From an uncultured delta proteobacterium (GTDB lineage Bacteria > Desulfobacterota > Binatia > HRBIN30 > BPIQ01): a stretch of DNA of 64,000 bases. The translations under genes were made by a program, and so were the position numbers. Position 1 is the stretch's first letter; every line of letters begins with the position of its first letter. The notes beneath the pieces were generated by a model, which ran no database searches, was not told the origin of the DNA, and saw only the letters and a list, made by a program, of their open reading frames with translations. The stretch is from positions 576,001 to 640,000 of the forward strand of contig CAVXGR010000018.1 of NCBI GenBank assembly GCA_963761335.1. The letters run 5' to 3'. This document shows, in pieces, positions 416 through 25,321 of the stretch.

Positions 416-1745
416 TCAAGGAGAACTGCGCCCTTGGCGAGTCTGGCCGTTCAGCGGGACTCCGCCGGCTTCGCCGATCGCCGCCAGTCTGCCAATCGGA
501 GGCAGACGTCCTCCCTCACCCTCGGCTGCGCCTTGGACCATCTGGCGGAAGCGGGATCCGACAATCTGCAGATCGCGGAAGTCCAGATCACTGCGATAGA
601 AGATGTGGGCCGCGCCGACGTCGAACGGGCTCCGCAGCGAGGAAGGTGCACATGTAAGCTCGAACTCCGCCTTCCCGGACTTTCCCGAGAGGGCAGCGAC
701 GAGGCCGCTGTCGTTGACTTGGAGGGAGTCCAGGGACCAGCCGTCTGCGATGCTCTGTCCGACGATGAAGGGTCCGACCTGCCGCAGCGCGGGCACCACG
801 GCCGGCGCGCCCGCTTCCCGCGCCGTCTCCAGTCGAGTCCAACGCTGCCTCTGATGAGAGATGGCGAGCAGGGCGCATACGGCCAGCACCGCTGCGGCGG
901 CAGCGAACCGCCGATCGACCCCACCTACTCCCGCGGTGGAGTGCGCCGAGGGCGTCGGCGTGCCGTCCGCCGAGAGGCCGAAGACGAGCAGAAAGACCAT
1001 CGATTCCCAATAGAGAATGTGGGTCAGCAGGTAGATGTTCGCATGCATGGCGAGCAATCCCAGAGCGATGCAGAGCCGCGTCCGGCCGCCGGCGATCACG
1101 AGCGGCCCCGCCAGCTCGAAGCCGAGGGTGGCGACGGCGAACAGCTGAGCGACTGCCGGAGTCGTCGCTACCCAGGAGCGATAGGCGCTCAGCAAGCTGT
1201 CGGCGACCAGTCCGTCCTGTCCGATGACGACTGCCTGGATGGGGATGCCGGAGATCCACTCGGTGCCTCCGTACACGGCCTTGCTGATGCCGGCGTTCAG
1301 ATACGCCGCACCCAGCAGGGCGAGGCTGCCGGTGCGAGCGAACGACTCGTCAGTCGGCGTTCCCCGGGCGCGACCCACGGCCAAGCCGAGAAGCCATCCG
1401 GACAGACACAGGCCGCTGTAGAAAAGATGGCGCCAGGGCGATCCGAACAGCTGTGCATGGACGGAGCTGAGCAGCGCCAGGGCGGCCAGCGCGATCATTC
1501 CCTCCCACAGGCGCCCGGGCCTGCGGCCAAAGGCGATGGTGGCCGCCAGGCCGATGGCGATCACGATGCCGCGCACGGTCGCTGCGCGAGAGGATGTCGA
1601 TCAGCGGGCCGAGAGCCGGGCCGCGGGCCAGCGCCGCGGCGCGGGCCTCGCCGAGGAAGAAGAAGAAGGAGAGCAGGTCGACGGCGACGATGGCGGCCAG
1701 GGCGATGCGCAGGCAAGGCCGTGTCGGCGGGGGCTGTGCGGTCAT
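416..1745 (-). CDS. HTTM-like polytopic membrane protein with C-terminal 'GW' domain; apparent frameshift near 1580
   Basis: ATG at 1745 overlaps the upstream stop (ATGA) and reads MTAQPPP...IALAAIVAVDLLSFFFFL. The sequence continues in a different frame as ORF 416..1576, which has several TM helices and AAYLNAGISK...W.SG, resembling the HTTM 'Y..AG..K...W..G' motif. Confidence 0.6.
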
Positions 1746-2188
1746 CGTCCCACCCGGCAGTGGGCGATGACACAGTCCGCGACAGGCGCCGGCGGCGAAC
1801 CGGGGCGCAGCTCCCAAGTCCGCGTGATGAGCTCCGCCTGGAGCGCGCCGGGACCGGCATGGGTCTCGATGTAGCGAGTCAGATCCTCGAACTGATACTC
1901 GATGCCGCGCCGGTGAGCGCACCGAGCCGCGCTGCCCCGCAGGGGCTCGCTGCAGTCGAAGGAGCTGAAATCGGTGACCCGGTGCACCGCACCCCCAGCG
2001 TCGCGAATCAGAAGGTGACTCGCCTGTCTGCCCGGCAGCCGGGCATACATGGAGAAGGTGTCGAGCGGATAGAGCAGCGACGCCATCTGGTCCCCGAGCC
2101 GCATGTCGAAGCGCACCGCCCACGACAGGGCGACGTAGCCGAGGACGCAGAGCACTCCGAAACGAAGCTGCGAGGCGCGCGCGCTCAC
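1742..2188 (-). CDS. Membrane-anchored hypothetical protein (148 aa), possible partner of the HTTM-like protein
   Basis: GTG at 2188 overlaps the stop of the upstream rSAM gene. One N-terminal TM helix is followed by a YPLDTFSMYA motif. It is the C-terminal part of ORF 1742..2815. Confidence 0.7.
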   Translation of the reverse strand: MSARASQLRFGVLCVLGYVALSWAVRFDMRLGDQMASLLYPLDTFSMYARLPGRQASHLLIRDAGGAVHRVTDFSSFDCSEPLRGSAARCAHRRGIEYQFEDLTRYIETHAGPGALQAELITRTWELRPGSPPAPVADCVIAHCRVGR

Positions 2189-3333
2189 GGGTGCAGCAGA
2201 GGCTCCAGATCGTCCAGCGGATCGACCTTGACGCCACGGGCGGCGAAGGCTGCCGCAAGATGGCGGATGGTCGTCTCGGCGAACTCCTCGGTGGCGAAGG
2301 ACTGAAGCCGGTGTTGCTCGTAGAGATGCCGGACGCGCTCGCCGAGGTACATCCGGTCCAGCCGCACGGCACAGACGTACGGGGCAATCTCCGCGACCAG
2401 GCGGTCGACGTTCATCGGCAGCACCGGCTGGATGACGGCAAAGGTCCTGATCCCCGCCGCGTGCAGCGCCCGCAGGGCCGCGAATCGCTCGCCGATCGGG
2501 TCGGCGCCGGGCTCGAAAATCTTCCGGTACTCGTCGGCATCGGTGGGAATGCTGAAGCCGACGAGGGCCCGCGGGAACCGCTTCAGCAGATCGAGATCGT
2601 CGAGGACGCGCGGCGCGCGCGTCAGGACGACCGGCGCCAGCTCGCTGTCGAGGAGCACCTCCAGACACTGGCGCGTGATCCGGTAGCGCCGCTCCGCCGC
2701 CTGATAGGGATCGGTGAGGATCGGGCTCAGCCTCACGGTACCGCGCTTCGTTGTCTGGATTTCGCGTCGCAGAACTTCCGCGGCGTTGATCTTCACGTCG
2801 AGATAGCGACCCCACGCAAGCCGTGGCAGGCCCTCCAGGCGGCGCGAGAAGTCCGCCCGGTCGATGACGTAGCAGAAGGAGCAGCCGATCATGCAGCCGA
2901 CGTAGGGGTTGATGTAGTAGCGGCCCCTGCCTTCCGGCATCAGCAGGCGTTCGACGAGAACCTCGCGCACGGCGGTGCCGCGCTCGGCGCCGGGCCGCTC
3001 TCCCGCCGGGAGCAGCGCCTCGCGATCGCGGACCACCGCGACGACGTCGTCGACCAGGCGGCGATCCGCCTCGTTCATGGGCGTGTCCTCGAGCAGGCGG
3101 CGCGCGCAGACGTTGAAGCGGGCCGTGCGCGTGTAGCAGTCCAGGCGATCATTGCGCTCTTCGAGCTCCACGAGAACGGAGGCCCCATCACGTTCGAAGG
3201 TGAGGCAGATCGCCTGCTCGGCGTCCCAGCTGATCAGATTCCAGCCGGAAGACGCAGGACGGTCGTTGAGGAACGGCGCCAGGAGCTGGCCGGCAACCTC
3301 CTCGATCCCGCGTCTTACCGGTGTGAGTCCCAC
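2185..3333 (-). CDS. Radical SAM protein (SplB/Rv2578c-like) with N-terminal 'GW' domain
   Basis: YINPYVGCMIGCSFCY motif, LSPILTDPYQAAE and FSIPTD...FEPGA, as in SPL-family rSAM enzymes. Probable GTG start at 3333; the ORF-track extension upstream is shadow of the opposite-strand gene. Confidence 0.85.
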   Translation of the reverse strand: MGLTPVRRGIEEVAGQLLAPFLNDRPASSGWNLISWDAEQAICLTFERDGASVLVELEERNDRLDCYTRTARFNVCARRLLEDTPMNEADRRLVDDVVAVVRDREALLPAGERPGAERGTAVREVLVERLLMPEGRGRYYINPYVGCMIGCSFCYVIDRADFSRRLEGLPRLAWGRYLDVKINAAEVLRREIQTTKRGTVRLSPILTDPYQAAERRYRITRQCLEVLLDSELAPVVLTRAPRVLDDLDLLKRFPRALVGFSIPTDADEYRKIFEPGADPIGERFAALRALHAAGIRTFAVIQPVLPMNVDRLVAEIAPYVCAVRLDRMYLGERVRHLYEQHRLQSFATEEFAETTIRHLAAAFAARGVKVDPLDDLEPLLHP

Positions 3334-3474
3334 GGTTCTGTGCTCATTCTGCGGTCGCGAGAGCGATCCGACAGGCAGGCTAGTCGCTACGGCAACGGCG
3401 AGCAAGGATTGCGAAGGCTCGGCCCCGAGCTTTTCCTCTGGAAATGGCGCGCCGCCTGCGCGAGACTTCCGAGG

Positions 3475-5265
3475 ATGTGGCGAATCTCTTGGGCCCGGGC
3501 AGCGGCGGCGGCGCGCCTGCTCGCCGAGCTCGCCGGATTCGCGGCGCTGCTGTTCGTGACCCGCTTCATCGCCCGCGGACACCTGGTCCCGCAGATGGAT
3601 CAGGAATGTCACATCGGCGGCATCGCCATCGACGTGCTCCGGCACGGAGTGCGCTTTCCGCTGATGGTGTACGCTCCCAACGAGTACGACAACGGCTCCT
3701 TCTTCAGCGGTCTCCTGGCGGCGGCGTCCTTCTCGCTCTTCGGTCGCAATCTCCTGGCCTTGAAGCTGGTCACGCACCTGATCTGTGCCGCCGGAGCCGT
3801 GGCCACCCTGTGGCTCTTGCGGGGCTGCCTCGAGGAGCTTGGGCTGACGACGCGGAAGGTGTACTGGGCAGCCGTCGCCGTGCTGATCGTCGAGATCGCC
3901 GTGGCCCCGCGCGTGGTGACCCTGGTCTCGATGTACGCCGTCGGCAACCACGCCGAGGGCTGCGCCATCGATACCATTCTGCTGGCGCTCTACTCGCACC
4001 GGGCGCCGCGGAGATCGGCGGCGCGCACCGCCGCCTTCTGGGCGCTGGTGGGGATTGGGCTCTACCTGAACAAAGGGACCTTCCTGGTCATTCCCGTGCT
4101 GGGCGCGGCGGAGGTTGCGCTCGGCTGGCGTTCGCGCCGCCGCCTCGTCGCCGCCCTGGGCGGGTTTGTCGCGGGTATCCTTCCGGAGCTGCTGGTCGTT
4201 GCCCGGCGCCACGCGATGGGCTGGGCGACGATGGCCTCCAAGGCCGAGAACAACTCGCGGGCGTTTCCTCGCGCTTTCGCCGACAGCTTCCTGACTCTTG
4301 CCGATAAGCGACCCGAGCTCCTGCTCCTGTGGGTCATTGCCCTGGTCGCCGGTGGGCTGTTGCTGGCGGGCGCTCTGCGTCGCCGTTGGAGCGGCGGCGA
4401 GGCAGACCTGTGCGCCGGCGCCGCGCCGCCGGTGGCGCTGGCGCTGGTGGTGGGTGTCACCTGCATGCATCTGGCGGCGATGACGGTGATGGCCCAGGGC
4501 GGTCTCGACGCCTACGCGATCTACAGCTATCCCGCGCTGGCCGTGCTGGTCGCGCTACTGGTTGCCTGGGGATGCGCCCAGGCGGAGGCGCACCGGGCCG
4601 GAGGCGGTGTCCTGGTCGGTATCGCCGCAGTGGCGATGGCGCTGGTGGTCTATCGTCCCGAGGCGCTGACCTGGGGAACCGCCGAGGTTTCGGAGCTGTG
4701 GCACGACCGGGCTGGCGCGGCCTGCTCCTGGCGCTTTGCGGAAGGCTTCATGCGCGAGCAGCACTACGGCCTGGCGCCCGGGCAGACTCGTGAGCAGCAC
4801 GCGATTGCCCGCTGCCGCTCTCTCAGCGATCGGGATCAGGTGCTCGACTGCATCGGCGGAATCGGCCGCGAGCTCAACTGGAGGCAGGGGGGGCGGGTGC
4901 ACGGGACGCCGCCGCCGGAGCTCGATGCGGCGGAGCGCCGCGCCTACGCCTACTACTACGGCACTCACCGGGGCGGCGACACGACGGCATGCCGCGACTT
5001 CGATGATACCCAGCTGGTGGCGGAATGTGAGTCCGCCGTGCAGCTGGACTGTCTCATCTTCGGCGACGTCTCCACGCGCTTCGTCGCCGGCCGCGGGCTC
5101 GGCCGACCGCGATGCAGCCTCGCGGCGCCCCCGATGGACGGCTACTGGATGGCGATGCGCGCCGAGCTCCTCGGGAGGCCGGGACACCGGGGCCCCGACC
5201 TCGGCGGCGGGCTCGGGGACAACGATCTGCGGTCCTGTCAGGCGGTTTTCGACGCCTGCTACTGA
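3475..5265 (+). CDS. Polytopic membrane protein, GT-C/ArnT-like glycosyltransferase candidate, with Cys-rich C-terminal domain
   Basis: ATG at 3475. About 10-11 hydrophobic segments, an acidic DQE loop after TM1, and a soluble C-terminus with many Cys. Confidence 0.55.
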   Translation: MWRISWARAAAAARLLAELAGFAALLFVTRFIARGHLVPQMDQECHIGGIAIDVLRHGVRFPLMVYAPNEYDNGSFFSGLLAAASFSLFGRNLLALKLVTHLICAAGAVATLWLLRGCLEELGLTTRKVYWAAVAVLIVEIAVAPRVVTLVSMYAVGNHAEGCAIDTILLALYSHRAPRRSAARTAAFWALVGIGLYLNKGTFLVIPVLGAAEVALGWRSRRRLVAALGGFVAGILPELLVVARRHAMGWATMASKAENNSRAFPRAFADSFLTLADKRPELLLLWVIALVAGGLLLAGALRRRWSGGEADLCAGAAPPVALALVVGVTCMHLAAMTVMAQGGLDAYAIYSYPALAVLVALLVAWGCAQAEAHRAGGGVLVGIAAVAMALVVYRPEALTWGTAEVSELWHDRAGAACSWRFAEGFMREQHYGLAPGQTREQHAIARCRSLSDRDQVLDCIGGIGRELNWRQGGRVHGTPPPELDAAERRAYAYYYGTHRGGDTTACRDFDDTQLVAECESAVQLDCLIFGDVSTRFVAGRGLGRPRCSLAAPPMDGYWMAMRAELLGRPGHRGPDLGGGLGDNDLRSCQAVFDACY

Positions 5266-6284
5266 GCGGTGGCATTTGCCGCCGCTGCCGGCGCGAGGAG
5301 ACGCTGCCGCCTCAGAAACTCGGCGAGCTGGTCGGCCACCAGGCGGTTGCCCGCAACCGTCATGTGGCCGTGAAAGAGACGAGCGCGCTGCTCGAGCGGC
5401 AGACTTTCGACCGGCGGGAACGCATCCACCGTCAGGAGATGATTCGCCCGGGCGCAGTCGAGTGCGGCGTCTTTGATCTGCAGATGCTCGGCGGTTGCGG
5501 TGGGTTGCTGTGGTTGCGCCAGGACGACGATGCGGAGGCCGTGGGCACGCTCGAAAGCGGCGAGGCGTTTCATGAGCAAGCAGGCAACCTCTCTGCCCTG
5601 GTGATGCACCACCGTCTCGTAGGGGCCCTCCCAGTTGATGAAGGTCGGAAAGAGCAGATCGGCGGTGACGCTGACCGACAGCAGGCGGCGCAGCGGGTCG
5701 TACACGGATGGCGGGGGAATCAGGGCGGAATGAAGCCGCAGCTGGCCGTCCTCGACGTCGAAGTACGGCTTCGGGTGCCCCGACCAGTACGACATCTCGC
5801 AGCGAAGGACGTCATGGGGGATGAAGCTGACGATGACGATGTTCGGTGCGTAGACGGGGGCGAGCTGCTCGGCGCGGAGCACGGCCTGGTCCAAGCCGAA
5901 GCCGGGGACGGCGGCGTTGATCACTCGGTGGCCGGTGCGCCGCTCGAGGATGGCCGGCCACGAGTAGCGGTCGTCAACCTGGTCGCCGAAGGCGAACGAG
6001 TCGCCCACGGCGAGCATCGGCGGGCGCGCCGCCGGCGGCGGCGGATTGCCGTTGCGGCGCGTGCCGTACTCTCCGATGCTGATGTTGAAGCCTCGCGGGT
6101 GATGAATCGAGATGCCGGCTTTTGGAATGCGACCGGCGACCGGGTCGACGACGGCGTAGCGACCGCTGTTGGGTCCTCCCAGCGAGAAGACGGTGTGCGT
6201 GGCAATACGCACCGAGAGCTCGATGAGAAGGAGAACGACTGTGGTGCCCAGCAATAGGCGCAGCGCGACGCGTTTGCGCGTCAT
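5259..6284 (-). CDS. SGNH/GDSL hydrolase-family protein with N-terminal membrane anchor
   Basis: AVGDSFAFG (block I), INAAVPGFGLDQ (block II) and GHMTVAGN (block V). Confidence 0.85.
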   Translation of the reverse strand: MTRKRVALRLLLGTTVVLLLIELSVRIATHTVFSLGGPNSGRYAVVDPVAGRIPKAGISIHHPRGFNISIGEYGTRRNGNPPPPAARPPMLAVGDSFAFGDQVDDRYSWPAILERRTGHRVINAAVPGFGLDQAVLRAEQLAPVYAPNIVIVSFIPHDVLRCEMSYWSGHPKPYFDVEDGQLRLHSALIPPPSVYDPLRRLLSVSVTADLLFPTFINWEGPYETVVHHQGREVACLLMKRLAAFERAHGLRIVVLAQPQQPTATAEHLQIKDAALDCARANHLLTVDAFPPVESLPLEQRARLFHGHMTVAGNRLVADQLAEFLRRQRLLAPAAAANATAQ

Positions 6285-6309
6285 CAATTCGGTGGAAAGG
6301 GTGTGGTGA

Positions 6310-7348
6310 CTAGCCCTGCGCTGGCATCGGTGGCGGGAGGGCGCCCGGCGGCGGGGAGACCATCATCGCCGGAGAGGGCGTGAGGGGAAGGGGCGACGGA
6401 GAGGGCGCGATGGGCAGGGGCGTCGGTGGAGGTCCTCCGGCGGCCGGCGTGGCCTCCATGCCGACGCAGGTGTCTGTCCCTGCCTGCATGTAAGAGTCAC
6501 AGGCATCGGCTTGCCCGAGGGCGGCCTTGGCGAGGGTGCGCTCGCGCGCCGGAGCCGACTCCGCCAGGTCCTTCAGGCCCTTGGCGTAGAAGCCCTTCCT
6601 GTCGATGGTGTTCTTGCAGTCCTCGACGATCTCCTTGGAGTCCTTGCCCTGGGCGCTGCAGAGAGACTTGTCGAGCTTGATGAAGGCGCGGCAAACTCCC
6701 TGCAGCTCGCCGGCAGCGGAGCACTGGCTCGCGTCGCCGGAGCGCAGCGCTTTGCGGAAGTTGTCGCAGATGCTGGCCACGCGCGGATCGGCGTGGCACT
6801 CCTCCAGCTTTACGTCGTCGAACATGAACGAGCGCCCATTCGGGTAGGTGCGCAGCTCGTGGAAGATCGAGCGCATGGCCCGACAGTCTTTGATCTGGCT
6901 GTCAGTGGTGAGCAGCTGGCAGGGCGCGTCAGAGTCGGTTGCCACGGCTCCACAGGTGACGAGCTCCGATGCCCGTGGTGCCAGGGCGCGCACCTCGTCA
7001 CTCTTCAGCACGGCAGCGTCCTTGGCGTGGCCCGAGAGGGCCGCCACGTACCGCTCGCAGCGATCGTGAGCCGCGGTATTGGCCGTGGCGACAGCCGGCA
7101 CCGGCGTGGGTGATCCGGCGGGCGCGCTCGTCGTCTCGTTTGCCGCCGTGGCCGTCGCCGGGGGCGCCACCGCAGTGGCGGTGGCGGCGGGGGGCGCCGC
7201 TGTCGGGCTCGCGACGAGCCACCGCGTGCGTCGGCGTCGGGGTCTTCTGCGGCTCGGCGGGTCGAGTGCAGCCGGCGAGCGGCAGGGCCAGGAGAACCAC
7301 GGAGCCGGTTCCCCGGACGATCAGTTTCGCGAAGCGAGAACGGGCCAC
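6310..7348 (-). CDS. Cys-rich lipoprotein with Pro/Thr/Ala linkers; apparent frameshift near 7220
   Basis: ORF 6998..7348 begins with a signal peptide and lipobox (LALPLAGC) followed by TPTPT. The Ala/Pro/Thr linker continues in the frame of ORF 6310..7170, which carries a Cys-rich domain and a Pro-rich tail. Confidence 0.6.
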
Positions 7349-9816: not shown

Positions 9817-10055
9817 TAACTCTCCTCCGCCAGAGCCGCCTGACGCATTCGCGAAATGGTCTCGTGCAAGACGTGATTGCAGAAGGCGTTGGCTACCATC
9901 TCGGCATCATCTTCGGCAACGCCGGAGATGATGGTCTCGATGGCGTCGGCGGCGGCAGTCACTTCGATCTGGGCGTGCTCGGCGTAGGCCGCCGCGGCGG
10001 CGTCGACGGCCTCAGGCAGGTATAGCGATCGGTCGAAGGCGATGCGCTTGGTCAT
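9816..10055 (-). CDS. Small HxsD-like protein (79 aa)
   Basis: FDRSLYLPEAVDAAAAAY...ANAFCNHVL. Paralogue of 23533..23778, and translationally coupled to its neighbours. Confidence 0.75.
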   Translation of the reverse strand: MTKRIAFDRSLYLPEAVDAAAAAYAEHAQIEVTAAADAIETIISGVAEDDAEMVANAFCNHVLHETISRMRQAALAEES

Positions 10056-11201: not shown

Positions 11202-11270
11202 GCCGCACCTCCTTCCGTTCATCCAATATTTCTCCTGCTACCACAGGCATTTTACGTTCGCAACGCGACA

Positions 11271-16769: not shown

Positions 16770-18631
16770 AGACGAGAATGCTGGCGCGCGAGCGCGTCGC
16801 CAATGTCCGCAAGCACTGGGTGCGCCTGGTGACCGCTTGTAACAGCCGCTGTATCTTCTGTCTGGACACCGACACGCCGCGCAACGTGTACATCCCCGAG
16901 GACGAGGTGCGGCGCGAGATTCTGCGCGGGCGGGAGCAGCTCAAGGCCGACAAGGTGATCCTCTCCGGGGGAGAGGGCTCGATCCATCCGAAGTTCGTCG
17001 ACTTCGTCGCCTACGCCAAGGAGGTCGGCTACAACCGCGTGCAGACGGTCACCAACGGCGTGATGTTCGCCCGCCGCGACTTCTATGCCGCGGCGGTGGG
17101 CGCCGGGCTCGGCGAGATCACCTTCAGCCTGCACGGGCACACGGCCGAGCTGCACGACCGTCTCACGGGGACGCCGGGCGCCTTCCGCAAGCTCATCAAA
17201 GGAATGGTGCGCGCCGTGCGCGAGGGGCGGATCATCGTCAACGTCGACGTCTGCATCAACAAGCAGAACGTCGCTTACATCGACCAGATCGTCGATCTCT
17301 GCCTCTCGGTGGGGGTGCACGAGTTCGACCTGCTGCACGTCATTCCCCAGGGGGTGGCCTTCGAGAACCGCAACGACCTCTTCTACGATCCGGTCGAGTA
17401 CCTGCCGCGCCTGCAGAAGGTGTTTCGTCTGAACCGCCACCCGAATGTGGTGGTGTGGACGAACCGCTTTCCGGTGGAGTTCCTCGAGGGGCTGGAGGAT
17501 CTCATTCAGGATCCGCACAAGATGCTCGACGAGGTCAACGGCCGCCGCTTCCAGGTCCGCCGCTACCTGGACGAAGGAGTGCCCCTGGAGTGCCGAGAGA
17601 AAGAGCGCTGCCAGTACTGCTTCATCGAGCCCTTCTGCAACACCGCCGATCGAGTCATCGAGCGGCAGAACCGCGCCAGCTGGGAGGTGTGGTGGATCGG
17701 CGAGCCCGGAGAGGCGCAGCGGGCGGAGATCGCCGCGCTGACCCCCGAGCAGCTGCCCTTCGGATGCGGCTACGTCGGCGTCGAGGTCGACGATCTGGCC
17801 GATCTCGAGGGGCTGGCGGTGTCCCCCGAGATCGGCATCTACGCCAAGGCGAGGCAGGTTTCGCGCCTCGTCGACCGCAAGGCGGTGTCCAATCCTCTCC
17901 TCGTCTGCGTTGCCGAAGCGGAGGCACTCGAGGTTCTGCTGTCGGCCGGCGAGATTCCGCCGGGCGTCGAGATCGAGATCGAGCTCAACCGGCAGACGGC
18001 GCCCTGGCTTCTGGCGCACCGCGAGCGCCTCGCCGGGGTTCTCTCCCGCCTGCGGCTCCATCAGCCGAGCCACGAGTTCCTGAAAGACGCCGTCGACAAC
18101 GACGTGCGCAATCCCGCCGCGTTCTTCGCCCAGCTCGCCCTGCCGGTGCGGGTCAGCGGACTCCCCGCCTGTCTGGCGCCGGGAGCGCAGCTGAGCGAGG
18201 CGCCCAAGATTCTGCACAGGACACTCTTCGACGCCGAGACCGGGCGCGTGGCGATCCGCGAGCTGGCGCGCGAGCACGTGGTGCGCGGTTACTGGGGCAA
18301 GTCGGTTCGCTGCCGAGACTGCGTGGTGAACGACCGCTGCGACGGTGCCCACATCAACTTCCTCCGCGATCAGGGATTCGCGCAGCTGGATCCTCTGCGT
18401 CAGGGCGAATGGGCCGAGGCGGCGGCGGCGCAGATGCTGCGCCTGCGACCCGAGCCGCCGGCGCGGCTGCGCGACGGACGGCCGAGCCTTCCGGTGGCGC
18501 CGAGCCTGCCCGGGTTCGCCCCGCCACGGCCGGCTCCCGTCGAGCCGCTGATCGAGCTCGGGCAGCGCGTGCGCGAGGAGCGCGAGCGGCGCCGCCTGCG
18601 CGCCCACCCGGAGGCTCCGCCGCCGGCATAA
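16751..18631 (+). CDS. Radical SAM protein (HxsC-like) with long C-terminal extension and Cys-rich tail
   Basis: CNSRCIFC, SGGEG, TVTNG and FSLHGH..ELHD.LT..PGAF; internal CxxxxxCxxC and terminal CRDCxxxxxC. Confidence 0.9.
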   Translation: MEREDLKTRMLARERVANVRKHWVRLVTACNSRCIFCLDTDTPRNVYIPEDEVRREILRGREQLKADKVILSGGEGSIHPKFVDFVAYAKEVGYNRVQTVTNGVMFARRDFYAAAVGAGLGEITFSLHGHTAELHDRLTGTPGAFRKLIKGMVRAVREGRIIVNVDVCINKQNVAYIDQIVDLCLSVGVHEFDLLHVIPQGVAFENRNDLFYDPVEYLPRLQKVFRLNRHPNVVVWTNRFPVEFLEGLEDLIQDPHKMLDEVNGRRFQVRRYLDEGVPLECREKERCQYCFIEPFCNTADRVIERQNRASWEVWWIGEPGEAQRAEIAALTPEQLPFGCGYVGVEVDDLADLEGLAVSPEIGIYAKARQVSRLVDRKAVSNPLLVCVAEAEALEVLLSAGEIPPGVEIEIELNRQTAPWLLAHRERLAGVLSRLRLHQPSHEFLKDAVDNDVRNPAAFFAQLALPVRVSGLPACLAPGAQLSEAPKILHRTLFDAETGRVAIRELAREHVVRGYWGKSVRCRDCVVNDRCDGAHINFLRDQGFAQLDPLRQGEWAEAAAAQMLRLRPEPPARLRDGRPSLPVAPSLPGFAPPRPAPVEPLIELGQRVREERERRRLRAHPEAPPPA

Positions 18632-18653: not shown

Positions 18654-19691
18654 ATGGCGAATCTGGGCTATCTGCAGCTCACCCGCAATTGCTATCAGAA
18701 GTGCCAGTTCTGTAGTAATCCGCCGACCGGGGTGCATCTCAACGAGGAGGAGATGCGCGCCAACATCGACCGCCTGGTCGAGCTCGGCTACGACGGCGTG
18801 ATCCTCACCGGCGGCGAGCCGAGCATCTCGGAGCTGCTCTTGCCGGCGCTGGCCTACGCCCGCGAGCGCGACCTCTTCAGCCGCATGATCACCAACGGTC
18901 AGAGGCTCGCCGACCGGGACTTCTTCCGCCGCTGCGTCGACGCCGGGCTGACCCACATCCACGTGTCCCTGCACAGCTATCGGCGCGAGGTCCACGACTT
19001 CATCACCCAGTACCGCGGCGCCTGGGATCTCCTGGTGGAGTGTCTGAGCCACGTGCCGGAGATGGGCATCACCTGCGACATCAACACGGTGATCAACGTG
19101 TACAACTGCGATCACCTCCACGAGAACGTGCAGTGGATCTGCGAGAACTTCCCGTTCATCCGGCACTTCGTGTGGAACAACATGGACCCCGACGGCAATC
19201 GCGCCGAGGAGAATCCCGACTGCATTCCCCGGCACTACGAGTTCCAGGTGTCGCTGGAGCGCGCCATGGAGTACCTGGTGAGCAGCGGGCGGACCTTCCG
19301 CGCCGAGCGCGTGCCGCTGTGCTACATGCGCCACTTCGCCTGGGCCTCCACCGAGGCCCGCAAGATCATCAAGGAGGAGGAGCGCTGCATCAAGTTCCTC
19401 GATGCCAAGGGCTTCATCCACCAGAAGGAGTTTCTGCACGGCAAGGGCACCGCCTGCGACGTCTGTCGCTTCGACACGATCTGCGCGGGCATGTTCTCGA
19501 TGGCCAAGACCTACGACGAGCGCGAGCTGTCGCCGATCTTCGACGATCCGCTCGATGTGATCGTCCAGGTGCTGGGACGGAGGCCGTCCCCGGACCTGCT
19601 CGAGAGACTGCAGAAGCGGCGCGGCCGGCGCTCGAAGACGGAGCAGCCGTCGGTGGAAAAGAGGGAACAGGCGCTCTCGCGGGCGCTGTAG
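18654..19691 (+). CDS. Radical SAM protein (HxsC-like) with twitch-type C-terminal Cys
   Basis: CYQKCQFC, TGGEP, ITNG, VPLCYM and CDVCxxxxxC. Confidence 0.9.
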   Translation: MANLGYLQLTRNCYQKCQFCSNPPTGVHLNEEEMRANIDRLVELGYDGVILTGGEPSISELLLPALAYARERDLFSRMITNGQRLADRDFFRRCVDAGLTHIHVSLHSYRREVHDFITQYRGAWDLLVECLSHVPEMGITCDINTVINVYNCDHLHENVQWICENFPFIRHFVWNNMDPDGNRAEENPDCIPRHYEFQVSLERAMEYLVSSGRTFRAERVPLCYMRHFAWASTEARKIIKEEERCIKFLDAKGFIHQKEFLHGKGTACDVCRFDTICAGMFSMAKTYDERELSPIFDDPLDVIVQVLGRRPSPDLLERLQKRRGRRSKTEQPSVEKREQALSRAL

Positions 19692-19694
19692 GCC

Positions 19695-22007
19695 ATGCCC
19701 CGCTTGCTCTTCGTCAACCCGCCCCTCGTCCTCGACGAGGACTTCATCGACTACCCGTACTTCGCCAATCACGGACTGCTCGCCTGCGCCGGGATGGCGG
19801 CGCGCGCCGGGGCGCAGGTGGACGTCTACGACGCCTTCGCGCAGCCCGCCTCGGGGCGCCACCGGCGGGCCGCAGGCGGCTTCGTTCTCGGCGTCGGGCA
19901 CGCCGACTTCATCGCCGGCCTGCCCGAGGGCGAGCCCGACGTGGTGGTGCTCGGCGCCTCCGTCTTCCTGCGCATCGAGGCGGCACACGCGGAGACGCGG
20001 GCGCTGATCGCGGCGCTCCGCCGGCGGTTCCCGGACGCCGTGCTGCTGCTCGCCGACGGCTACGTGGGCGGCCAGCACTACATGGACTACGATGGCGTAC
20101 GGGTGCTGGCGGAGTACGAGGAGCTGGATGCGATCCTCAAGTACCCCGGCGAGCGCCTCTTCGGCGACCCCGCGTATCTCGCCACACTCCGCGGCGCCAG
20201 AAGGGTACTGACGGAGGCAGGGGAGCGCGGCGCCGATCCCCTCGCATCGTTTTATATGCTCGATGCCATCGATCTGGGGAGCTTCGATCGCTTTCTCGAT
20301 CGCTGCTTCGCCGACGGGCTGTGGCAGGACACCTTCGGTGTCGGCAGCGGCACCCGCTCCTTTCTCACCAGCATGGGCTGCCCGCATCGCTGCATCTTCT
20401 GCACCAGCAATCCCGGCTGGCGGCGCAGCGGCCGCAAGCTCTACCAGCCGATCCCGCTGGCCCGCCTGAAGCACTGGGCCTTCCTGCTGCGCACCGCCTT
20501 CGGGGCGCGCAAGCTCATCGTTCTCGACGAGATGGTGAACGTGCGCCCGGACTTCGAGGCGCTGCTCACCGCCTTCAACGACCTCGATCTCTCCTACGAT
20601 TTCCCCAACGGCATGCGCGCCGACCATCTCAGCCGCGAGGCCGTCGCCCTCATGCGGGGACGCGTCAGCGTGGTCAGCATCTCGGCGGAGAGCGCCACGC
20701 AGGAGGATCTCGACGGCCCCATCGGCAAGGGCCAGAAGCTCGACGCCATCTTTCGGGCCGCCGCCTGGTGTCAGGAGATCGGTGTGCCCTTGATGATCCA
20801 CTACATCATCGGCTTTCCGTGGGAGACCCCGGCGCACATCACCGCGACCCTGGAGATGGCATGGGACCTCTATGAGCGCTACGGCGCCTGGCCCTCGATG
20901 CAGTTCGCGACGCCGATCCGCGGCACCGCGCTGCACGAGCAGTGCGCCTCGCTCGGGCTGATACCGCCGGAAGGCATCGATCTCAAGGACGGGGCTCTCT
21001 TCCAGCACCGCCCGTGCTACGAGCCGCCGCACTGCCCTCCCGGCTACGTCGCCAAGGCGCGCGCCGCCTTCGACATGAAGATGGCCGCCCGCGAGTCCCG
21101 CAAGCTGATCGTCAACATCACCTACAAGTGCGCCAACCGCTGCGTCTTCTGCGCCACCGGCGACCGCATCTCGGCGGCGCTCGACTGGGAGAAGATCGAG
21201 GGGATCCTCCGCCAGCATCGCCAGGAGGGGACGGATCTTCTCGACATCGACGGCGGCGAGCCGACCCTGCACCCGCGACTCCTCGACGCCGTCGCCCTGG
21301 CGCGGGATCTCGGCTACCGCGCCATCAACGTCACCAGCAACGGTCGCCTGCTGCGCGATCCGGCGGTCGCTCGCGGCCTTCTCGAGAGCGGCATCACGCA
21401 TCTGCTGATCTCGCTGCACGGGGCCACTGCCGCCGTGCACGACGCCGCGACCGATACGCCGGGAAGCTTCGAGCAGACGGTTGCCGGCATCGACAACGTC
21501 ATGGCCATGCGTCCGCCGCACGTCGACACGGGCATGAACGTCACCATCGTGCGCGACAACGTCGATCAGCTGATGCCGCTCGCCGCCCTGGCGGTGGAGA
21601 AGGGTTTTGCCAAGATCAACTTTCAGTTCACCACGCCGTTCGGCCGCGCCTACGAGGACGTGGTGCCGCCTCTCGAGGAGGCGGCGCGTGCGGTGATGCG
21701 GGTCATCGACCGCTACGCGGGCGAGATTCAGATCCACGTGATCAACGCCCAGTTCTGCGCCTTCCCCGGCTACGAGCAGTACGTCGTCGGCGATCTGCAG
21801 AAGCTCGGCCGCACCATGATCTTCGCCGCCGATCCGCGCTTTCCGGAGCAGGTGAACCTGTACCAGTGGCTGGGGGCCCGTCGCGAGAAGCGCGCCGTCT
21901 GCGGCCAGTGCCCATGGACGACCGCGTGCGAGGGCTTCCAGGTCTTCGCCCAGGAGAAGCCCGATATGCGCGTCGAGCGCGCCCGACCGAGCGTCGCGGT
22001 GGCCTGA
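19695..22007 (+). CDS. Fusion of B12-binding radical SAM (class B methyltransferase-like) and a second HxsC-like radical SAM domain
   Basis: N-terminal LLFVNPP cobalamin-binding-type domain; TSMGCPHRCIFC, YIIGFPWET and TPIRGT.L; then CANRCVFC, GGEPTLHP, SLHG and terminal CxxCxxxxxC. Confidence 0.88.
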   Translation: MPRLLFVNPPLVLDEDFIDYPYFANHGLLACAGMAARAGAQVDVYDAFAQPASGRHRRAAGGFVLGVGHADFIAGLPEGEPDVVVLGASVFLRIEAAHAETRALIAALRRRFPDAVLLLADGYVGGQHYMDYDGVRVLAEYEELDAILKYPGERLFGDPAYLATLRGARRVLTEAGERGADPLASFYMLDAIDLGSFDRFLDRCFADGLWQDTFGVGSGTRSFLTSMGCPHRCIFCTSNPGWRRSGRKLYQPIPLARLKHWAFLLRTAFGARKLIVLDEMVNVRPDFEALLTAFNDLDLSYDFPNGMRADHLSREAVALMRGRVSVVSISAESATQEDLDGPIGKGQKLDAIFRAAAWCQEIGVPLMIHYIIGFPWETPAHITATLEMAWDLYERYGAWPSMQFATPIRGTALHEQCASLGLIPPEGIDLKDGALFQHRPCYEPPHCPPGYVAKARAAFDMKMAARESRKLIVNITYKCANRCVFCATGDRISAALDWEKIEGILRQHRQEGTDLLDIDGGEPTLHPRLLDAVALARDLGYRAINVTSNGRLLRDPAVARGLLESGITHLLISLHGATAAVHDAATDTPGSFEQTVAGIDNVMAMRPPHVDTGMNVTIVRDNVDQLMPLAALAVEKGFAKINFQFTTPFGRAYEDVVPPLEEAARAVMRVIDRYAGEIQIHVINAQFCAFPGYEQYVVGDLQKLGRTMIFAADPRFPEQVNLYQWLGARREKRAVCGQCPWTTACEGFQVFAQEKPDMRVERARPSVAVA

Positions 22008-22009
22008 GC

Positions 22010-22942
22010 ATGGAGACGATCCAGCTGGGCGGGCAGTGGTTCGACTACGCCGACGTCCTCATCGACGTCATGTTCGGCTACGCCTGCAACGTCCAGTGCG
22101 ACTACTGCTCGATCACCGACGACATGCGCCGGGAGAACATGACGACGGCGTCGGTCATCGCGCAGCTCGCCGAGGCGCGGGCGCGCGGCGCCACCCGGGT
22201 CGCCTTTGGCGGCGGCGAGCCGACCATCCGGCGGAGCCTGTTGCCGCTGGCGCGCTGGTGCCGCGATCGCGGCTATCGCTCGATCAAGGTCGCCTCCAAC
22301 GGGCTCATGTACTCGTATCGCTCCTTCGCGGAGGAGGCGAGCGAGGCGGGCATCAACTCGTTCCACATCTCCTTCATGGCGCACACGCCCGAGCTCTACG
22401 AGAAGATCATGGGAAAGCCGGGGGCGCTGTCGCTGGTGACCGAGGGGCTCCGCAACCTGATCGCCCTGGGCCACAAGCCGGTCGGCGACCTGATCATCAA
22501 GAGCGACACCTGGATGCATCTCGCGGACATCGTCGAGCACTGGGCCGCTCTCGGTGTCGAGACCTTCAACCTGTGGTTGGTGTCGCTGTCGGATCGCAAC
22601 CGCGACAATCTCGACTCGCTGTTGCCGGTCAGCACCATGCGCGAGGGGATCGGCGCTGCCTTCGAGCGCGGCCGGAGCCTCGGGGTCACGGTTCTGTCGC
22701 GCCACATTCCGCGCTGCATGCTCCCCGGGTACGAGGATCAGGTCGCCGATCTGCGCGACGACAAGGTGCTGGTGGTGACGCCGCGCACCTCTTTCGCACT
22801 CTGGGAATCGAAGATCTCTCCCAACACCTACGCCGAGAAGTGCCAGGGCTGCCGCCACCAGCACGGCGTCTGCCTCGGGCTGCGCCAGGACTACCTGGAG
22901 CGCTACGGCGACGCCGAGGTGCAGCCGGAGTACGCGCAATGA
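22010..22942 (+). CDS. Radical SAM protein (HxsC-like) with twitch-type C-terminal Cys
   Basis: ATG 22010; CNVQCDYC, GGGEPT, ASNG, IPRC and CQGC...VCLG...Y...YG..E..P. Confidence 0.9.
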   Translation: METIQLGGQWFDYADVLIDVMFGYACNVQCDYCSITDDMRRENMTTASVIAQLAEARARGATRVAFGGGEPTIRRSLLPLARWCRDRGYRSIKVASNGLMYSYRSFAEEASEAGINSFHISFMAHTPELYEKIMGKPGALSLVTEGLRNLIALGHKPVGDLIIKSDTWMHLADIVEHWAALGVETFNLWLVSLSDRNRDNLDSLLPVSTMREGIGAAFERGRSLGVTVLSRHIPRCMLPGYEDQVADLRDDKVLVVTPRTSFALWESKISPNTYAEKCQGCRHQHGVCLGLRQDYLERYGDAEVQPEYAQ

Positions 22943-22943
22943 T

Positions 22944-23021
22944 GGGGACAGGCTACTTTTCGGCGGCACCGCCTGCCGATTCAAGAGAAGGCGACGCGTC
23001 GCCGAAGAGTAGCCTGTCCCC
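22944..23021. repeat. Intergenic inverted repeat (22-bp arms, 1 mismatch), REP/hairpin-like
   Basis: ggggacaggctacttttcggcg (22944-22965) pairs with cgccgaagagtagcctgtcccc (23000-23021). Confidence 0.85.
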
Positions 23022-23071
23022 CTTCCACTTGATGAACGCGCAGCAATGCGGCATCCCCTGACCAGAAGCTC

Positions 23072-23527
23072 ATGACTCACACCCGAATAGAAACCCTCGA
23101 CGCGCAGGGGTCGACGCTGACCCTGTCGCTCGACATCGGCCTGTATCCGCGCGACGTGCTCTACGCCGCCGCCTACGTGTTCCTCGACCGCGCCTACGTG
23201 CTCCTCGACCGCGATGGCTCGCGTTTCCTCGTGCACCTGCGGGGCAAGCAGCTCCTCGAAGAGGAGGCTCTGCGGGCCATGGCCGGCGAGTTCGAGAACG
23301 AGCTCCTCGCCCAGGCGCTGCGGCAGCGGGTGACCCGCACCAACCAGAGACTCATCGAGGACATCGCCTCCCTGGCGATCGCCGGTGCCGCCGGCGCCGC
23401 AGTGCACGGCGACGTCGCGTCCGACGACTCCGGGCTGATCGATGTCGACGCCCCCGGCGAGGACGGCTTTCTCGACGACCCCCTGGGCATTGCCGAGCCC
23501 TGGGAGTCCAAGAAGAAGGACGGGTGA
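23072..23527 (+). CDS. hxsD: His-Xaa-Ser system protein HxsD (second copy)
   Basis: LDIGLYPRDVLYAAAYVFLDRAYV...GEFENELLAQALR...LDDPLGIAEPWESK. Confidence 0.88.
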   Translation: MTHTRIETLDAQGSTLTLSLDIGLYPRDVLYAAAYVFLDRAYVLLDRDGSRFLVHLRGKQLLEEEALRAMAGEFENELLAQALRQRVTRTNQRLIEDIASLAIAGAAGAAVHGDVASDDSGLIDVDAPGEDGFLDDPLGIAEPWESKKKDG

Positions 23528-23532
23528 GCGCG

Positions 23533-23778
23533 ATGTCTGCCGGCACCGCCGAGCCCGCCACCGTGAAGCTGCACTGCGCCCTGTACATGCGCGAGGCGAT
23601 CACGGACGCGGCGGCGACCTTTGCCGACTTCGCTTCGTTCGTCCTCCGCCTCGACGGCGATCACTTTCTCGTCGAGGTCAGCGACATCGATGCCGAGGTC
23701 GAGGGCGATGTGGTGGCGGAGTTCTGCAACTTCGCCCTGGCGCACACGGCGATGCGCCGCAAGAGCCAGCATGCTTGA
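23533..23778 (+). CDS. Small HxsD-like protein (second copy)
   Basis: LHCALYMREAITDAAATF...VAEFCNFAL; paralogue of 9816..10055. Alternative GTG start at 23524. Confidence 0.75.
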   Translation: MSAGTAEPATVKLHCALYMREAITDAAATFADFASFVLRLDGDHFLVEVSDIDAEVEGDVVAEFCNFALAHTAMRRKSQHA

Positions 23779-25321
23779 CGCCGGGGCCCGCATCGAGAAC
23801 GGCAGCCGCGATCTGCTGCCGCGCGGCCGCCAGGTCGACTTCACCAGGCTCTCCAGCCCCGACCGCTGGCAGCCGGAGCTCGCCGTTCCCTTCAATCAGC
23901 GGATGATCGGCGAGAAGGTGTTGATCAGCAACGATCTCGGCGATTGGTTGCTGCTCTCCCAGGAGGAGTTCCGCGATCTCCTCGAAGGCCGACCACAGCC
24001 GGGGGAGCCTCTCTACGAGAAGCTGGGGCGCGCCAACTTCATCGCCGCCGAGATCGACGTCCATGCCCAGGCAGAGCGCTGGCGGCGCAAGAAGCAGTAC
24101 CTGTTTCAGGGGCCGACGCTGCACGCCTTCGTGCTGACGCATCGCTGCAACCACGGATGCCAGTACTGCCACAGCTCGATCGTCGGCATGGAGCGCACCG
24201 ACACGGACATGTCGATGGAGGTTGCCGAGCGCGCCGTCGATATGGCCTTCCAGACCACTGCCTGGGCGCTGACCATCGAGTTCCAGGGCGGTGAGCCGAC
24301 GGCCAACTGGGACGTGCTCCGCCATGTCGTCGAGTACGCACGCGAGAAGAACATCACCGCCGGGAAGGTCCTTTCCTTCGCGCTGGTGACCAACCTCTCG
24401 CTCATGGACGACGAGAAGCTCGACTATCTCCTCGACCGCCGCGTGCAGATCTGCACCAGCCTCGACGGTCCCGCCGACCTGCACAACAAGATCCGCGTCT
24501 TCAAGGGCGGCAACAGCCACGAGATGGTCCTCGGCTGGATGAAGAAGATCAACCAGCGCTACGCCGACATGGGCCTGGACGTGAACCATTACCGGGTCGA
24601 GGCCCTGCCGACGATCACCCGTCCCAGCCTGACGCGCTGGAGGGACATCGTCGACCAGTTCGTCGCAGCCGGCTGCCGCGCCGTCTTCCTGCGCAAGCTG
24701 GACCCATTCGGATTCGCGGCGCGCAGCGCCAAGACGCTGGGCTACTCCATGGACGAGTTCCTGGAGTTCTACGCCAATGCCGTGGACTACATCATCGAGC
24801 TCAATCGCCAGGGCGTGCAGGTGATGGAGCGGCACGCGGCGATCATGCTCAACAAGATTCTCGCCGACGAAGAGCCCAACTATCTCGACCTGCGCATCCC
24901 CGGCGGCGCCTGCATCGGCCAGCTCGGCTACGCGCCGGACGGCAGCATCTACTCCTCCGACGAGGGCCGCTTCGTCGCCTCCATGGGCGACGACATGTTC
25001 AGGATCGGCAGCGTGTACGACAGCTACCACGAGCTGATGACCAGCGGCGCCACCCGCGCCCTGGTGATGGCGGGCCTCAACGACGGCCAGCCGGACTGCG
25101 TCAGCTGCGTCTACAAGCCGTGGTGCGGCCAGCAGGTCGAGTACAACTACAAGACCCAGGGCAGTCTGCACGGCCACATGCGCGACTCGACCTGGTGCAA
25201 GAAGCACAAGTCGATCTTCGACTACCTCATGCACAAGCTCGAGTCGGCCGACGAGCGGGACATGGAGATGTTCCGCCTGTGGACGACCAACCGCACCCTG
25301 GAGCACTTCATCATCGAATAG
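23771..25321 (+). CDS. hxsB: His-Xaa-Ser system radical SAM maturase HxsB
   Basis: LISNDLGDW N-terminus, GPTLH..VLTHRCNHGCQYC, IEFQGGEP, SLDGP, YLDLR.P.GA.IGQLGY..DG.IY.SDEGR and CVSCVYKPWCG...C. Confidence 0.93.
   Translation: MLDAGARIENGSRDLLPRGRQVDFTRLSSPDRWQPELAVPFNQRMIGEKVLISNDLGDWLLLSQEEFRDLLEGRPQPGEPLYEKLGRANFIAAEIDVHAQAERWRRKKQYLFQGPTLHAFVLTHRCNHGCQYCHSSIVGMERTDTDMSMEVAERAVDMAFQTTAWALTIEFQGGEPTANWDVLRHVVEYAREKNITAGKVLSFALVTNLSLMDDEKLDYLLDRRVQICTSLDGPADLHNKIRVFKGGNSHEMVLGWMKKINQRYADMGLDVNHYRVEALPTITRPSLTRWRDIVDQFVAAGCRAVFLRKLDPFGFAARSAKTLGYSMDEFLEFYANAVDYIIELNRQGVQVMERHAAIMLNKILADEEPNYLDLRIPGGACIGQLGYAPDGSIYSSDEGRFVASMGDDMFRIGSVYDSYHELMTSGATRALVMAGLNDGQPDCVSCVYKPWCGQQVEYNYKTQGSLHGHMRDSTWCKKHKSIFDYLMHKLESADERDMEMFRLWTTNRTLEHFIIE

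Follow-up and report, generated by a model that had tools for sequence, protein, structure and literature searches.

The window analysed here is a stretch of 64,000 nucleotides from an uncultured delta proteobacterium of the class Binatia (contig CAVXGR010000018.1 of assembly GCA_963761335.1). It contains a real and conserved cluster, some 25 genes in size, whose ten radical S-adenosylmethionine (SAM) domains and other tailoring enzymes surround a single peptide made of His-x-Ser repeats. The overall best explanation, which we consider probable, is that this cluster is a Binatia-lineage form of the expanded "type 4" His-Xaa-Ser (HxsA4) maturation system. The precursor and HxsD-like families are already catalogued in NCBIfam; the enlarged cluster itself is an unstudied relative of the four-gene HXS system. 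A previous, sequence-only reading had seen an HxS-repeat precursor near the centre, about ten radical SAM domains (seven with an intact CxxxCxxC motif and three without) and a locus larger than the described four-gene systems; all three observations hold in our analysis, with the same tally.

As the GC content of the window lies between 0.60 and 0.71, long spurious open reading frames (ORFs) are abundant, and genes were called by codon-position GC together with family scans (Pfam, NCBIfam). The resulting locus is divergent: on the minus strand an operon made of a twin-arginine translocation (Tat)-signal protein, HxsA4 and a secreted protein, on the plus strand a row formed by five radical SAM-type genes (R1 to R5), HxsD, an HxsD-like gene and HxsB. 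Behind the precursor operon lies a second module with a Tat paralog, HxsD, HxsD-like, an HxsB paralog devoid of the iron-sulfur cluster motif, a halogenase and envelope genes including a pair of putative glycosyltransferases (a GT-C candidate and GT2). As transcribed, the minus-strand order is Tat paralog R, HxsA4, secreted protein, Tat paralog L, HxsD, HxsD-like, HxsB paralog, halogenase remnant, Cys-rich protein and SGNH/AlgX-like protein; beyond a plus-strand membrane gene (3475-5265) follow a radical SAM protein of the PA0069/Rv2578c group, a 148-residue protein, a polytopic membrane protein and GT2. The seven CxxxCxxC motifs are found in the left-arm radical SAM protein, R2, R3, R5 and HxsB (one each) and in R4 (two), while the three motif-less domains are the HxsB paralog and both radical SAM-like halves of R1. 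The inventory of the sequence-only reading was thus right overall, apart from the frame of the fifth radical SAM gene and the labels HTTM-like, SGNH and lipoprotein, which need correction.

The precursor HxsA4 (13469-13858, minus strand) scores 143.7 bits with NF038313, for a cut-off of 55. Its 129 residues comprise a 56-residue leader, then HMS, HAS, 22 HGS units and a terminal Trp, i.e. 24 His-x-Ser repeats. The 22 perfect HGS units are encoded by 10 different words of nine nucleotides, their Ser codons come from both families (TCN 12 times, AGY 10 times) and the copies of the repeat match only 68-87% at the DNA level (TRF). This variation indicates that the HGS repeat is kept at the protein level, and is not the product of chance or of recent slippage. 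The only Pfam match of HxsA4, Collagen, is caused by its Gly-x-y periodicity, and the score with the canonical HxsA model stays at 20.7 bits, below the cut-off of 121.65. In the relatives of the locus the leaders are near-identical and are followed by 14-23 perfect HGS units, and all complete precursors end in HGSW. Two HGS-repeat precursors with an unrelated leader were also observed in a metagenome-assembled genome (MAG) labelled Bradymonadales (L029, 18649-19297, minus strand), where they adjoin R2-, R3-, R4- and R5-like radical SAM genes, an HExxH gene, HxsD and an HxsD-like gene; as they end in HGSW too, the terminal Trp appears conserved across phyla. The genome under study carries a second HxsA4 on another contig (G000:C12:719919-721931, L067; 106.6 bits, 22 HGS units, leader 89% identical), which precedes a paralog of the secreted Thr/Pro-rich protein, has no upstream Tat gene and lies far from any Hxs enzyme gene.

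Around this precursor, the Hxs enzymes are recognised by their own curated models. On the plus strand, HxsB (23771-25321; start at 23771, not 23621) is a radical SAM/SPASM maturase with the motif CNHGCQYC, and reaches 506.1 bits with TIGR03978 (cut-off 370). It is preceded by the right copies of HxsD (23072-23527; TIGR03976, 55.2 bits for a cut-off of 50) and of the HxsD-like small protein (23524-23778; NF038315, 59.4 bits for 41). The left copies, on the minus strand, behave alike: 50.5 bits for HxsD (10055-10540), which just passes, and 58.1 bits for the HxsD-like protein (9816-10055), whose start overlaps the HxsD stop by one nucleotide according to the coordinates. The scan with the Hxs family models that the sequence-only reading had proposed is therefore positive for HxsA4, HxsB, both HxsD and both HxsD-like proteins, and below cut-off for HxsA, HxsC, HxsC4 and the HxsB paralog.

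The five genes upstream of HxsD, all on the plus strand, are related to HxsC at various distances. With TIGR03977 (cut-off 267.9) R3 scores 97.4 bits, R2 83.4, R4 75.2, R1 58.8 and R5 51.7. R3 (18654-19691; CYQKCQFC) is thus the most HxsC-like; it is also the best-conserved gene of the set, 82-89% identical in 28 other genomes. R2 (16751-18631; CNSRCIFC) scores higher with HxsC4, 96 bits and likewise below cut-off, and has a C-terminal extension of about 390 residues belonging to no known family. R4 (19695-22007) is a double radical SAM protein (CPHRCIFC and CANRCVFC) matched twice by PF04055; its C-terminal half gives 119.9 bits with HxsC4 (cut-off 500), its N-terminal half weak matches to TIGR04013 and HpnJ. 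R5 (22010-22942; CNVQCDYC) gives 86.2 bits with HxsC4 and 68 bits with PF04055; the ORF 22036-23061, previously taken as the fifth radical SAM gene, is in the wrong frame (GC at third codon positions 0.48). R1 (14913-16769) consists of tandem radical SAM-like domains, both without CxxxCxxC (PF04055, 53.5 bits), and two of its stretches match several NCBIfam radical SAM models. The intergenic gaps range from -19 to +22 nucleotides through R1-R5 and are of -4 and -8 nucleotides at the HxsD/HxsD-like/HxsB junctions, gaps so small that we read the plus-strand genes as one translationally coupled operon.

The synteny search in related genomes, also suggested by the sequence-only reading, recovered the gene set in dozens of loci, most of them from MAGs labelled Candidatus Binatia or "Deltaproteobacteria". 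We collected 44 related loci, 21 from a search with R4 and 23 from a search with the HxsB paralog, and counted matches at 40% identity or more. R4 was found in 31 of them, R3 in 27, R5 in 26, R2 in 25, R1 in 22 and the HxsB paralog in 21; the right-copy HxsB, HxsD and HxsD-like genes in 17 each, HxsA4 in 15 and the HExxH gene in 12. These counts are lower bounds on loci that are not independent, since short contigs are numerous and some contigs or MAGs contribute more than one locus. Two layouts recur. In the first, found in 9 of the 21 loci of the R4 search (L013, L015, L016, L018, L019, L021, L022, L025 and L027), R1 is the gene from which the Tat-HxsA4-secreted protein operon directly diverges. 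In the second, found in 8 of the 23 loci of the HxsB-paralog search (L047, L049, L051, L052, L053, L055, L058 and L063), this operon has HxsD, HxsD-like and the HxsB paralog on its divergent side, and these run into R1-R5. Radical SAM genes thus stand beside HGS-repeat precursors in many genomes, the co-occurrence whose lack the sequence-only reading had named as a possible refutation.

At the scale of the class, R3 is matched (E<=1e-60) in 33 of the 301 sampled genomes, the one under study (G000) included, or in 32 of 300 without G177; identity is of 82-100% in 29 of the 33 and of 44-46% in the four others. By family within the class, the proportion varies from 0/49 up to 13/18, and is of 0/2 in the family of the window itself. 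From this spread and these identities, the system appears accessory and patchy, yet very conserved where it is present.

The natural reference for such a locus is the HXS system, first predicted, reportedly, by Haft and Basu in 2011. Its function was characterised in Escherichia coli, where HxsDBCA blocks the entry of phage DNA: in the excerpts of that study used here, HxsB, HxsC and HxsD mature HxsA, with a gain of 8 Da at SHRSS and an N-terminal processing, HxsC binds HxsD, and HxsA reaches the periplasm (Li et al., Nat Commun 2026, PMC13128918). The same excerpts place 99.7% of HXS systems in Pseudomonadota, give more than 99.8% of them as four-gene systems and 99.6% as laid out HxsD-HxsB-HxsC-HxsA, and describe HxS repeats enriched in Arg/Lys, the His-rich repeats acting as a functional array (PMC13128918). 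The system of the window shares with canonical HXS (TIGR03976-03979) an HxsB and HxsD above curated cut-offs, a His-x-Ser repeat substrate, HxsC-like radical SAM partners and a product whose place would be the envelope. It differs by its five HxsC-like genes, none at the HxsC cut-off, its pseudo-radical-SAM proteins, its duplicated HxsD and HxsD-like genes, and by the addition of an oxygenase of the alpha-ketoglutarate (aKG)-HExxH type, a halogenase, Tat partners, a secreted Thr/Pro-rich protein and putative glycosylation genes. Its precursor is a leader with 24 uniform repeats ending in Trp, without peptidoglycan-binding domain; its layout is divergent, with five radical SAM genes upstream of HxsD-HxsD-like-HxsB in place of the D-B-C-A order; and its hosts are Binatia-type soil MAGs, not Pseudomonadota.

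With the NCBIfam "type 4" models the agreement is partial: HxsA4 (NF038313) and HxsD-like (NF038315) are recognised, whereas HxsC4 (NF038332) is recognised neither in the window nor elsewhere in the genome, where no match exceeds 500 bits (best 119.9 in the window, 114.2 in the genome-wide scan). The radical SAM set described here thus seems to represent a different branch from the one modelled at NCBI. Our literature search returned no paper mentioning HxsA4 or HxsC4 and none describing this gene set; beyond Li et al. and its preprint, the Hxs terms led to a few genome-report or mapping papers mentioning Hxs genes and to unrelated uses of the letters. The impression that the architecture had not been described therefore stands for the publications searched, but not entirely for databases, as NCBIfam already models HxsA4, HxsC4 and the HxsD-like family.

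Judged from their sequences, the HxsB paralog and R1 are conserved pseudo-radical-SAM proteins. The former (8326-9816, minus strand) scores 351.7 bits with TIGR03978, below the cut-off of 370; a deletion of 14 residues takes out exactly its Cys loop, and the SPASM-type Cys are kept. CxxxCxxC is likewise missing in 14 of its 15 orthologs, the exception, in L044, having CNMTCAYC. For R1 the motif is missing in all 11 aligned orthologs, which stay 53-65% identical over the full length. As for HxsD, the AlphaFold2 (AF2) model of the right copy (pLDDT 80) has as best PDB matches subunits of the Rpb11/RpoL type (E 7.6e-4, TMt 0.54) and, more weakly, type III secretion chaperones. A role of HxsD as a PqqD-type recognition element (RRE) was considered and dropped, none being among the 50 PDB matches listed.

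The cluster does not end with HxsB at 25321, as first proposed: an aKG-HExxH-type peptide oxygenase had been missed (29353-30681, plus strand; HEFQH; TIGR04267, IPR026337, 79.7 bits for a cut-off of 40). HEFQH is at residue 663 of the long ORF 28300-30681, the first 340 codons of which overlap another gene, of the dienelactone-hydrolase family (DLH), and were not counted to the oxygenase. In 12 of the 44 related loci the HExxH gene follows HxsB, directly or after an insertion. On this gene order, we consider that the oxygenase belongs to the system, was ancestrally adjacent to HxsB, and extends the system to 30681. The block inserted in between (25530-29334, minus strand) is foreign to it, and contains the beta and alpha subunits of a 2-oxoacid:ferredoxin oxidoreductase (TIGR02177, 267 bits for 261.9; TIGR03710, 551 bits) and the DLH gene. 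None of these three genes was found in the 44 related loci, and the idea that the oxidoreductase is a dedicated supplier of reductant to the radical SAM enzymes was rejected on this ground. Other insertions exist: in L012, L019 and L021 other, mutually unrelated genes separate HxsB (or HxsD upstream) from its neighbours; L013 has no HxsB, and unrelated genes come after its R5. Directly downstream of the HExxH gene, the plus-strand ORF 30862-37680 encodes a Tc-toxin-like/RHS polymorphic toxin of 2272 residues with SpvB, FG-GAP, TcdB middle/N-terminal, RHS/YD repeat and RHS-associated core domains.

The combination of a radical SAM maturase with a subsequent aKG-HExxH oxygenase has precedents among the peptides that are ribosomally synthesised and then modified post-translationally (RiPPs). 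According to the excerpts of the source used here, the pathways with ChlBH-type fusions, PflC/PosC and BpmH are of this kind, aKG-HExxH enzymes act as hydroxylases on His, Asp or Gln and are also able to cut backbones, and the hydroxylation of His and Asp by ChlH depends on a crosslink pre-installed by a radical SAM enzyme (PMC12636437). The differences are that the HExxH enzyme of the window is stand-alone and that the precursor is a His-Gly-Ser repeat.

A further part of the system is its Tat-signal family. Paralog R (13956-14540, minus strand) is the first gene of the precursor operon; paralog L (10545-11222, minus strand) is 55% identical to it, and the family has no Pfam model. Both begin with a twin-arginine motif and a hydrophobic stretch (MLSRRDLVGKLAAG...), and the RR pair is invariant in the 26 aligned sequences, which predicts export; the four distant stand-alone members among the seven Tat-family proteins examined also begin with RR signals. 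A 90%-clustered collection contains 808 homologs of the family, all of them without a Pfam domain; at 50% identity the family counts 464 clusters, mostly of 150-210 residues. Its profile located 30 genome loci, and in 27 of them the gene immediately after the Tat gene is HxsA4 (15 loci) or HxsD (12 loci). In relatives, HxsD comes directly after paralog L and HxsA4 directly after paralog R. The AF2 model of the Tat domain is confident for residues 95-225.

The same family appears in a satellite cluster about 340 kb downstream of the window (G000:C18:936729-950364, L066), which holds five more HxsC/HxsC4-like radical SAM domains together with a TPR protein and a large membrane protein, and no HxsA or HxsB gene. 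One of its proteins, of 732 residues, is a fusion of an HxsD-like segment (41.5 bits for 41), a signal-less Tat-family domain, an HxsC4-like radical SAM domain and a 2Fe-2S ferredoxin; the Tat-family assignment comes from BLASTP (37% identity over 109 residues) and hhalign (probability 98.7%). Through this fusion the Tat-family domain is linked to the machinery of maturation. Immediately upstream of the satellite cluster, at G000:C18:935619-936692, about 15 near-perfect tandem units of 66 nucleotides read, in one frame, as a 22-residue repeat.

The third gene of the precursor operon (11271-13325, minus strand) encodes the secreted Thr/Pro-rich protein: a signal peptide, a Ser/Thr-rich N-terminal domain, a disintegrin-like Cys-rich module (PF00200, 39-41 bits), a Thr-Pro linker of about 220 residues and a C-terminal domain with many paralogs. 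In relatives and at the C12 copy, as in the window, it comes after HxsA4. The plus-strand ORF 11662-12588 (a "GVGV" frame), continued in frame as far as 13350, reads the Thr-Pro linker in antisense; it was rejected because the Thr/Pro GC pattern, the signal peptide and the domains are on the sense strand.

How far the cluster extends to the left is a more delicate matter. After the HxsB paralog, all on the minus strand, come three genes of variable preservation. The first is a remnant of the flavin-dependent Trp-halogenase family (7350-8351; PF04820, C-terminal part only), as the sequence-only reading had recognised: it lacks GxGxxG, the N-terminal motif for flavin adenine dinucleotide, and an internal deletion of about 230 residues removes WxWxIP. 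Full-length halogenases, with GGGTAG, GVGEAT and GWCWRIP, occur in L053, L054 and L056. The second is a Cys-rich secreted protein (6310-7330), previously called a lipoprotein: its signal peptide does have a lipobox (LPLAGC), in a frame different from that of the body. This conflict, at 7170-7330, is an apparent frameshift or assembly error, and the signal peptides are in-frame in L050, L054 and L056. The third, first labelled SGNH, is a candidate SGNH/AlgX-like hydrolase or acyltransferase (5259-6287), a weak assignment (ALGX 24.3 bits, below the cut-off of 26.5; GDSL E 0.05) with a visible GDS block (GDSFAFGD) and orthologs 63-67% identical in L050 and L056.

Further left, the plus-strand gene 3475-5265 would encode a membrane glycosyltransferase of the GT-C type (ArnT/PMT_2-like) with a Cys-rich C-terminal part. 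This candidate comes from Atlas feature scores (0.98 for a cluster with 49% PMT_2 members, 0.96 for a cluster all PMT_2), with no Pfam match, PF13231 included; it is syntenic in L050 and L056, where the adjoining GT2 genes are 37-39% identical. The following genes are on the minus strand. The left-arm radical SAM protein (2185-3372; CMIGCSFC at residue 160), of uncertain start codon, has matches to PF04055 and NF033668 (100 bits for a cut-off of 360) and is syntenic in L046, L050 and L060. The 148-residue protein (1742-2188) matches no known family and always accompanies memA; it is present in 4 of the 44 loci (L026, L046, L050 and L057). MemA (416-1576) is a polytopic membrane protein without Pfam or NCBIfam family, linked to Hxs modules in L026, L046, L057, L087 and L088. 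The HTTM-like pair of the sequence-only reading comes down here to a weak lead: Atlas scores of only 0.77-0.78, and no match to PF05090 at E up to 1. At the edge, GT2 (2-382, its 3' part beyond the window) is a glycosyltransferase of the polyprenyl-phosphate-sugar synthase type (PF00535, 103 bits), whose best NCBIfam matches are polyprenyl-/dolichyl-phosphate glycosyltransferases, all below cut-offs. Permissive Pfam searches (E up to 1) brought nothing new for the R2 C-terminal half, the domains of the secreted protein, the 148-residue protein, memA, the GT-C candidate or the HExxH protein.

Such heterogeneous neighbours could be a chance juxtaposition, only the right arm and HxsA4 forming one system and GT2, the GT-C-like, SGNH-like, Cys-rich, memA, 148-residue and left radical SAM genes being unrelated to it. 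Indeed several genomes have the left module well away from the right arm (on one contig, about 120 kb separate L016 from L056), the envelope genes are present in only 1 to 4 of the 44 loci, and two left-arm genes, the halogenase and the Cys-rich protein, look damaged here. On the other hand, wherever the envelope genes are seen they adjoin Hxs-type genes (HxsB paralog, HxsD, Tat paralog or R1) in the order of the window, as in L046, L050, L056, L057, L026, L087, L088 and L096, and their low counts largely reflect short contigs with flanks of 5-10 kb. Moreover, the minus-strand order from HxsA4 to the SGNH-like gene recurs, whole or in part, in L050/L068, L071, L086, L056/L070 and L054/L096, and the left radical SAM gene, the 148-residue protein and the membrane protein adjoin Hxs genes in L026, L046, L057, L060, L087 and L088. 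We thus regard a juxtaposition as improbable, and the wide left borders of the cluster as supported by this gene order, thinly for the outermost genes.

Taking the whole set as one expanded type 4 system, a pathway can be proposed. In the cytoplasm, the HxsD-type proteins, the motif-less HxsB paralog and R1 would act as scaffolds presenting the leader or the repeat, and the seven intact [4Fe-4S]/SAM sites would, by analogy with the +8 Da at SHRSS of canonical HxsA, install the same radical modifications on the His and Ser of every repeat. The HExxH enzyme might then hydroxylate or cleave the peptide, and an intact halogenase, which is not the case in this genome, could act on the invariant C-terminal Trp. 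The product, which has no signal peptide, would be carried to the periplasm on its Tat-signal partner, export being deduced only from the neighbouring Tat and Sec proteins. There it may work with the secreted, probably O-glycosylated Thr/Pro-rich protein, whose Thr-Pro linker might be glycosylated by the GT2/GT-C pair, in the manner of O-mannosylation of the PMT type, the analogy on which this step is modelled.

For the role of the product, we would rank first an envelope barrier against phage, as for HXS, a tentative assignment; second a metal-binding or other envelope function, which we find doubtful; and third a released natural product, for which the prospects are poor. The first of these roles leads to a rival explanation of the whole locus, namely that it is functionally just an HXS-type antiphage system, in which a modified HGS peptide placed in the periplasm would bind incoming phage DNA or block it, and the additional enzymes would do no more than diversify the effector. 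The locus is homologous to the only characterised relative, itself antiphage and with His-rich repeats as its functional array in the excerpts cited (PMC13128918); the patchy spread in the class (33/301 genomes, families from 0/49 to 13/18), the several precursor copies per genome and the envelope-targeted neighbours also agree with it. By contrast, the HGS repeats are devoid of the Arg/Lys enriched in canonical repeats, about 25 genes is far above the usual size of a defence system, as it is above the four genes of nearly all HXS systems, themselves nearly all from Pseudomonadota (PMC13128918, same excerpts), and the 82-89% identity of R3 across families of the class fits strong purifying selection. 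This explanation is therefore conceivable to us and not the favoured one; as to the barrier role, we hold it to about one in three because there is no peptidoglycan-binding domain, the locus is large and no defence context was found. On the latter point PADLOC, in its 2023 release which predates HXS, reports no defence genes nearby, only a generic viperin-like radical SAM similarity and one low-complexity match on the TPT linker. Far from the locus, it gives two partial "mad2" matches (52677-53561 and 63303-63881, both on the minus strand; E 1e-14 and 4e-19) that cover only positions 289-400 of the 492 of the profile.

The other way to read these genes is as a cluster that makes a metal-binding RiPP, either released or bound at the surface: a poly-His chelator that crosslinking and hydroxylation might render redox-active. 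The precursor has the leader-plus-core organisation with 24 His, and export by Tat is typical of cofactor- or metal-loaded cargo. The radical SAM/SPASM, aKG-HExxH and flavin halogenase enzymes are also typical of RiPP tailoring, as far as the excerpts of PMC12636437 go. Yet family scans of the conserved set recognised neither a metal transporter or TonB receptor nor a peptidase or ABC exporter, and an Hxs-type metallophore has no experimental precedent; we consider this reading unlikely. The label RiPP itself is left open, since HxsA of the characterised relative is, in the excerpts cited, a processed protein effector and not a classical natural-product RiPP (PMC13128918).

Several points weigh against the type 4 maturation system that we nevertheless prefer. 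No gene reaches the cut-off of HxsC (best 97.4 bits for 267.9) or of HxsC4 (best 119.9 for 500), and HxsA4, unlike canonical HxsA, has neither a peptidoglycan-binding domain nor a signal peptide. Among the predicted structures, the HxsD model resembles small dimerisation subunits rather than a PqqD-type recognition element, and for the Tat-domain model no structural neighbour is informative (nothing at E<=0.001 with Foldseek against PDB; best Z of 6.1 with VIA wide, which is within the range of common arrangements). Neither a leader peptidase nor an exporter is recognised in the locus, and PADLOC, as said, found no defence genes. The pathway may also be partly eroded here, given the halogenase remnant, the apparent frameshift of the Cys-rich gene and the 4 kb of foreign genes that separate HExxH from HxsB. 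Lastly, the system is known here from its genes alone, and what we say of its chemistry, export and role is deduced from them; among sequencing runs, the search listed no RNA run and four soil-metagenome DNA runs from one study (best share 0.30).

A bolder version of the type 4 system deserves mention, although we give it little credence. The seven radical SAM sites and the oxygenase would processively turn the 24 His-x-Ser units into identical crosslinked, His-derived units, making a periodic polymer, and the Tat carriers would let this polymer hitchhike into an envelope layer, directed at phage or metals, together with the O-glycosylated protein; the HxsB paralog and R1 would then be the first conserved pseudo-radical-SAM scaffolds of such a pathway. 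If this were true, the periodic polymer would be genetically encoded and of a chemistry not yet described, and the Tat carriers would be unrelated to known folds.

Whatever its role, the locus bears on the HXS family in several ways. The function of HXS was linked only in 2026 and its radical chemistry, the +8 Da on SHRSS, is unsolved: 24 uniform repeats, with graded and separable enzymes, may offer a stronger mass-spectrometric signal per peptide and a stepwise route to this chemistry. The locus also defines a large unannotated Tat-signal family, whose context is almost always Hxs in the loci examined, and offers two conserved pseudo-radical-SAM proteins for study. Finally, it places Hxs-type systems well outside Pseudomonadota, in abundant uncultured soil bacteria, which bears on the generality of "periplasmic gatekeeping".

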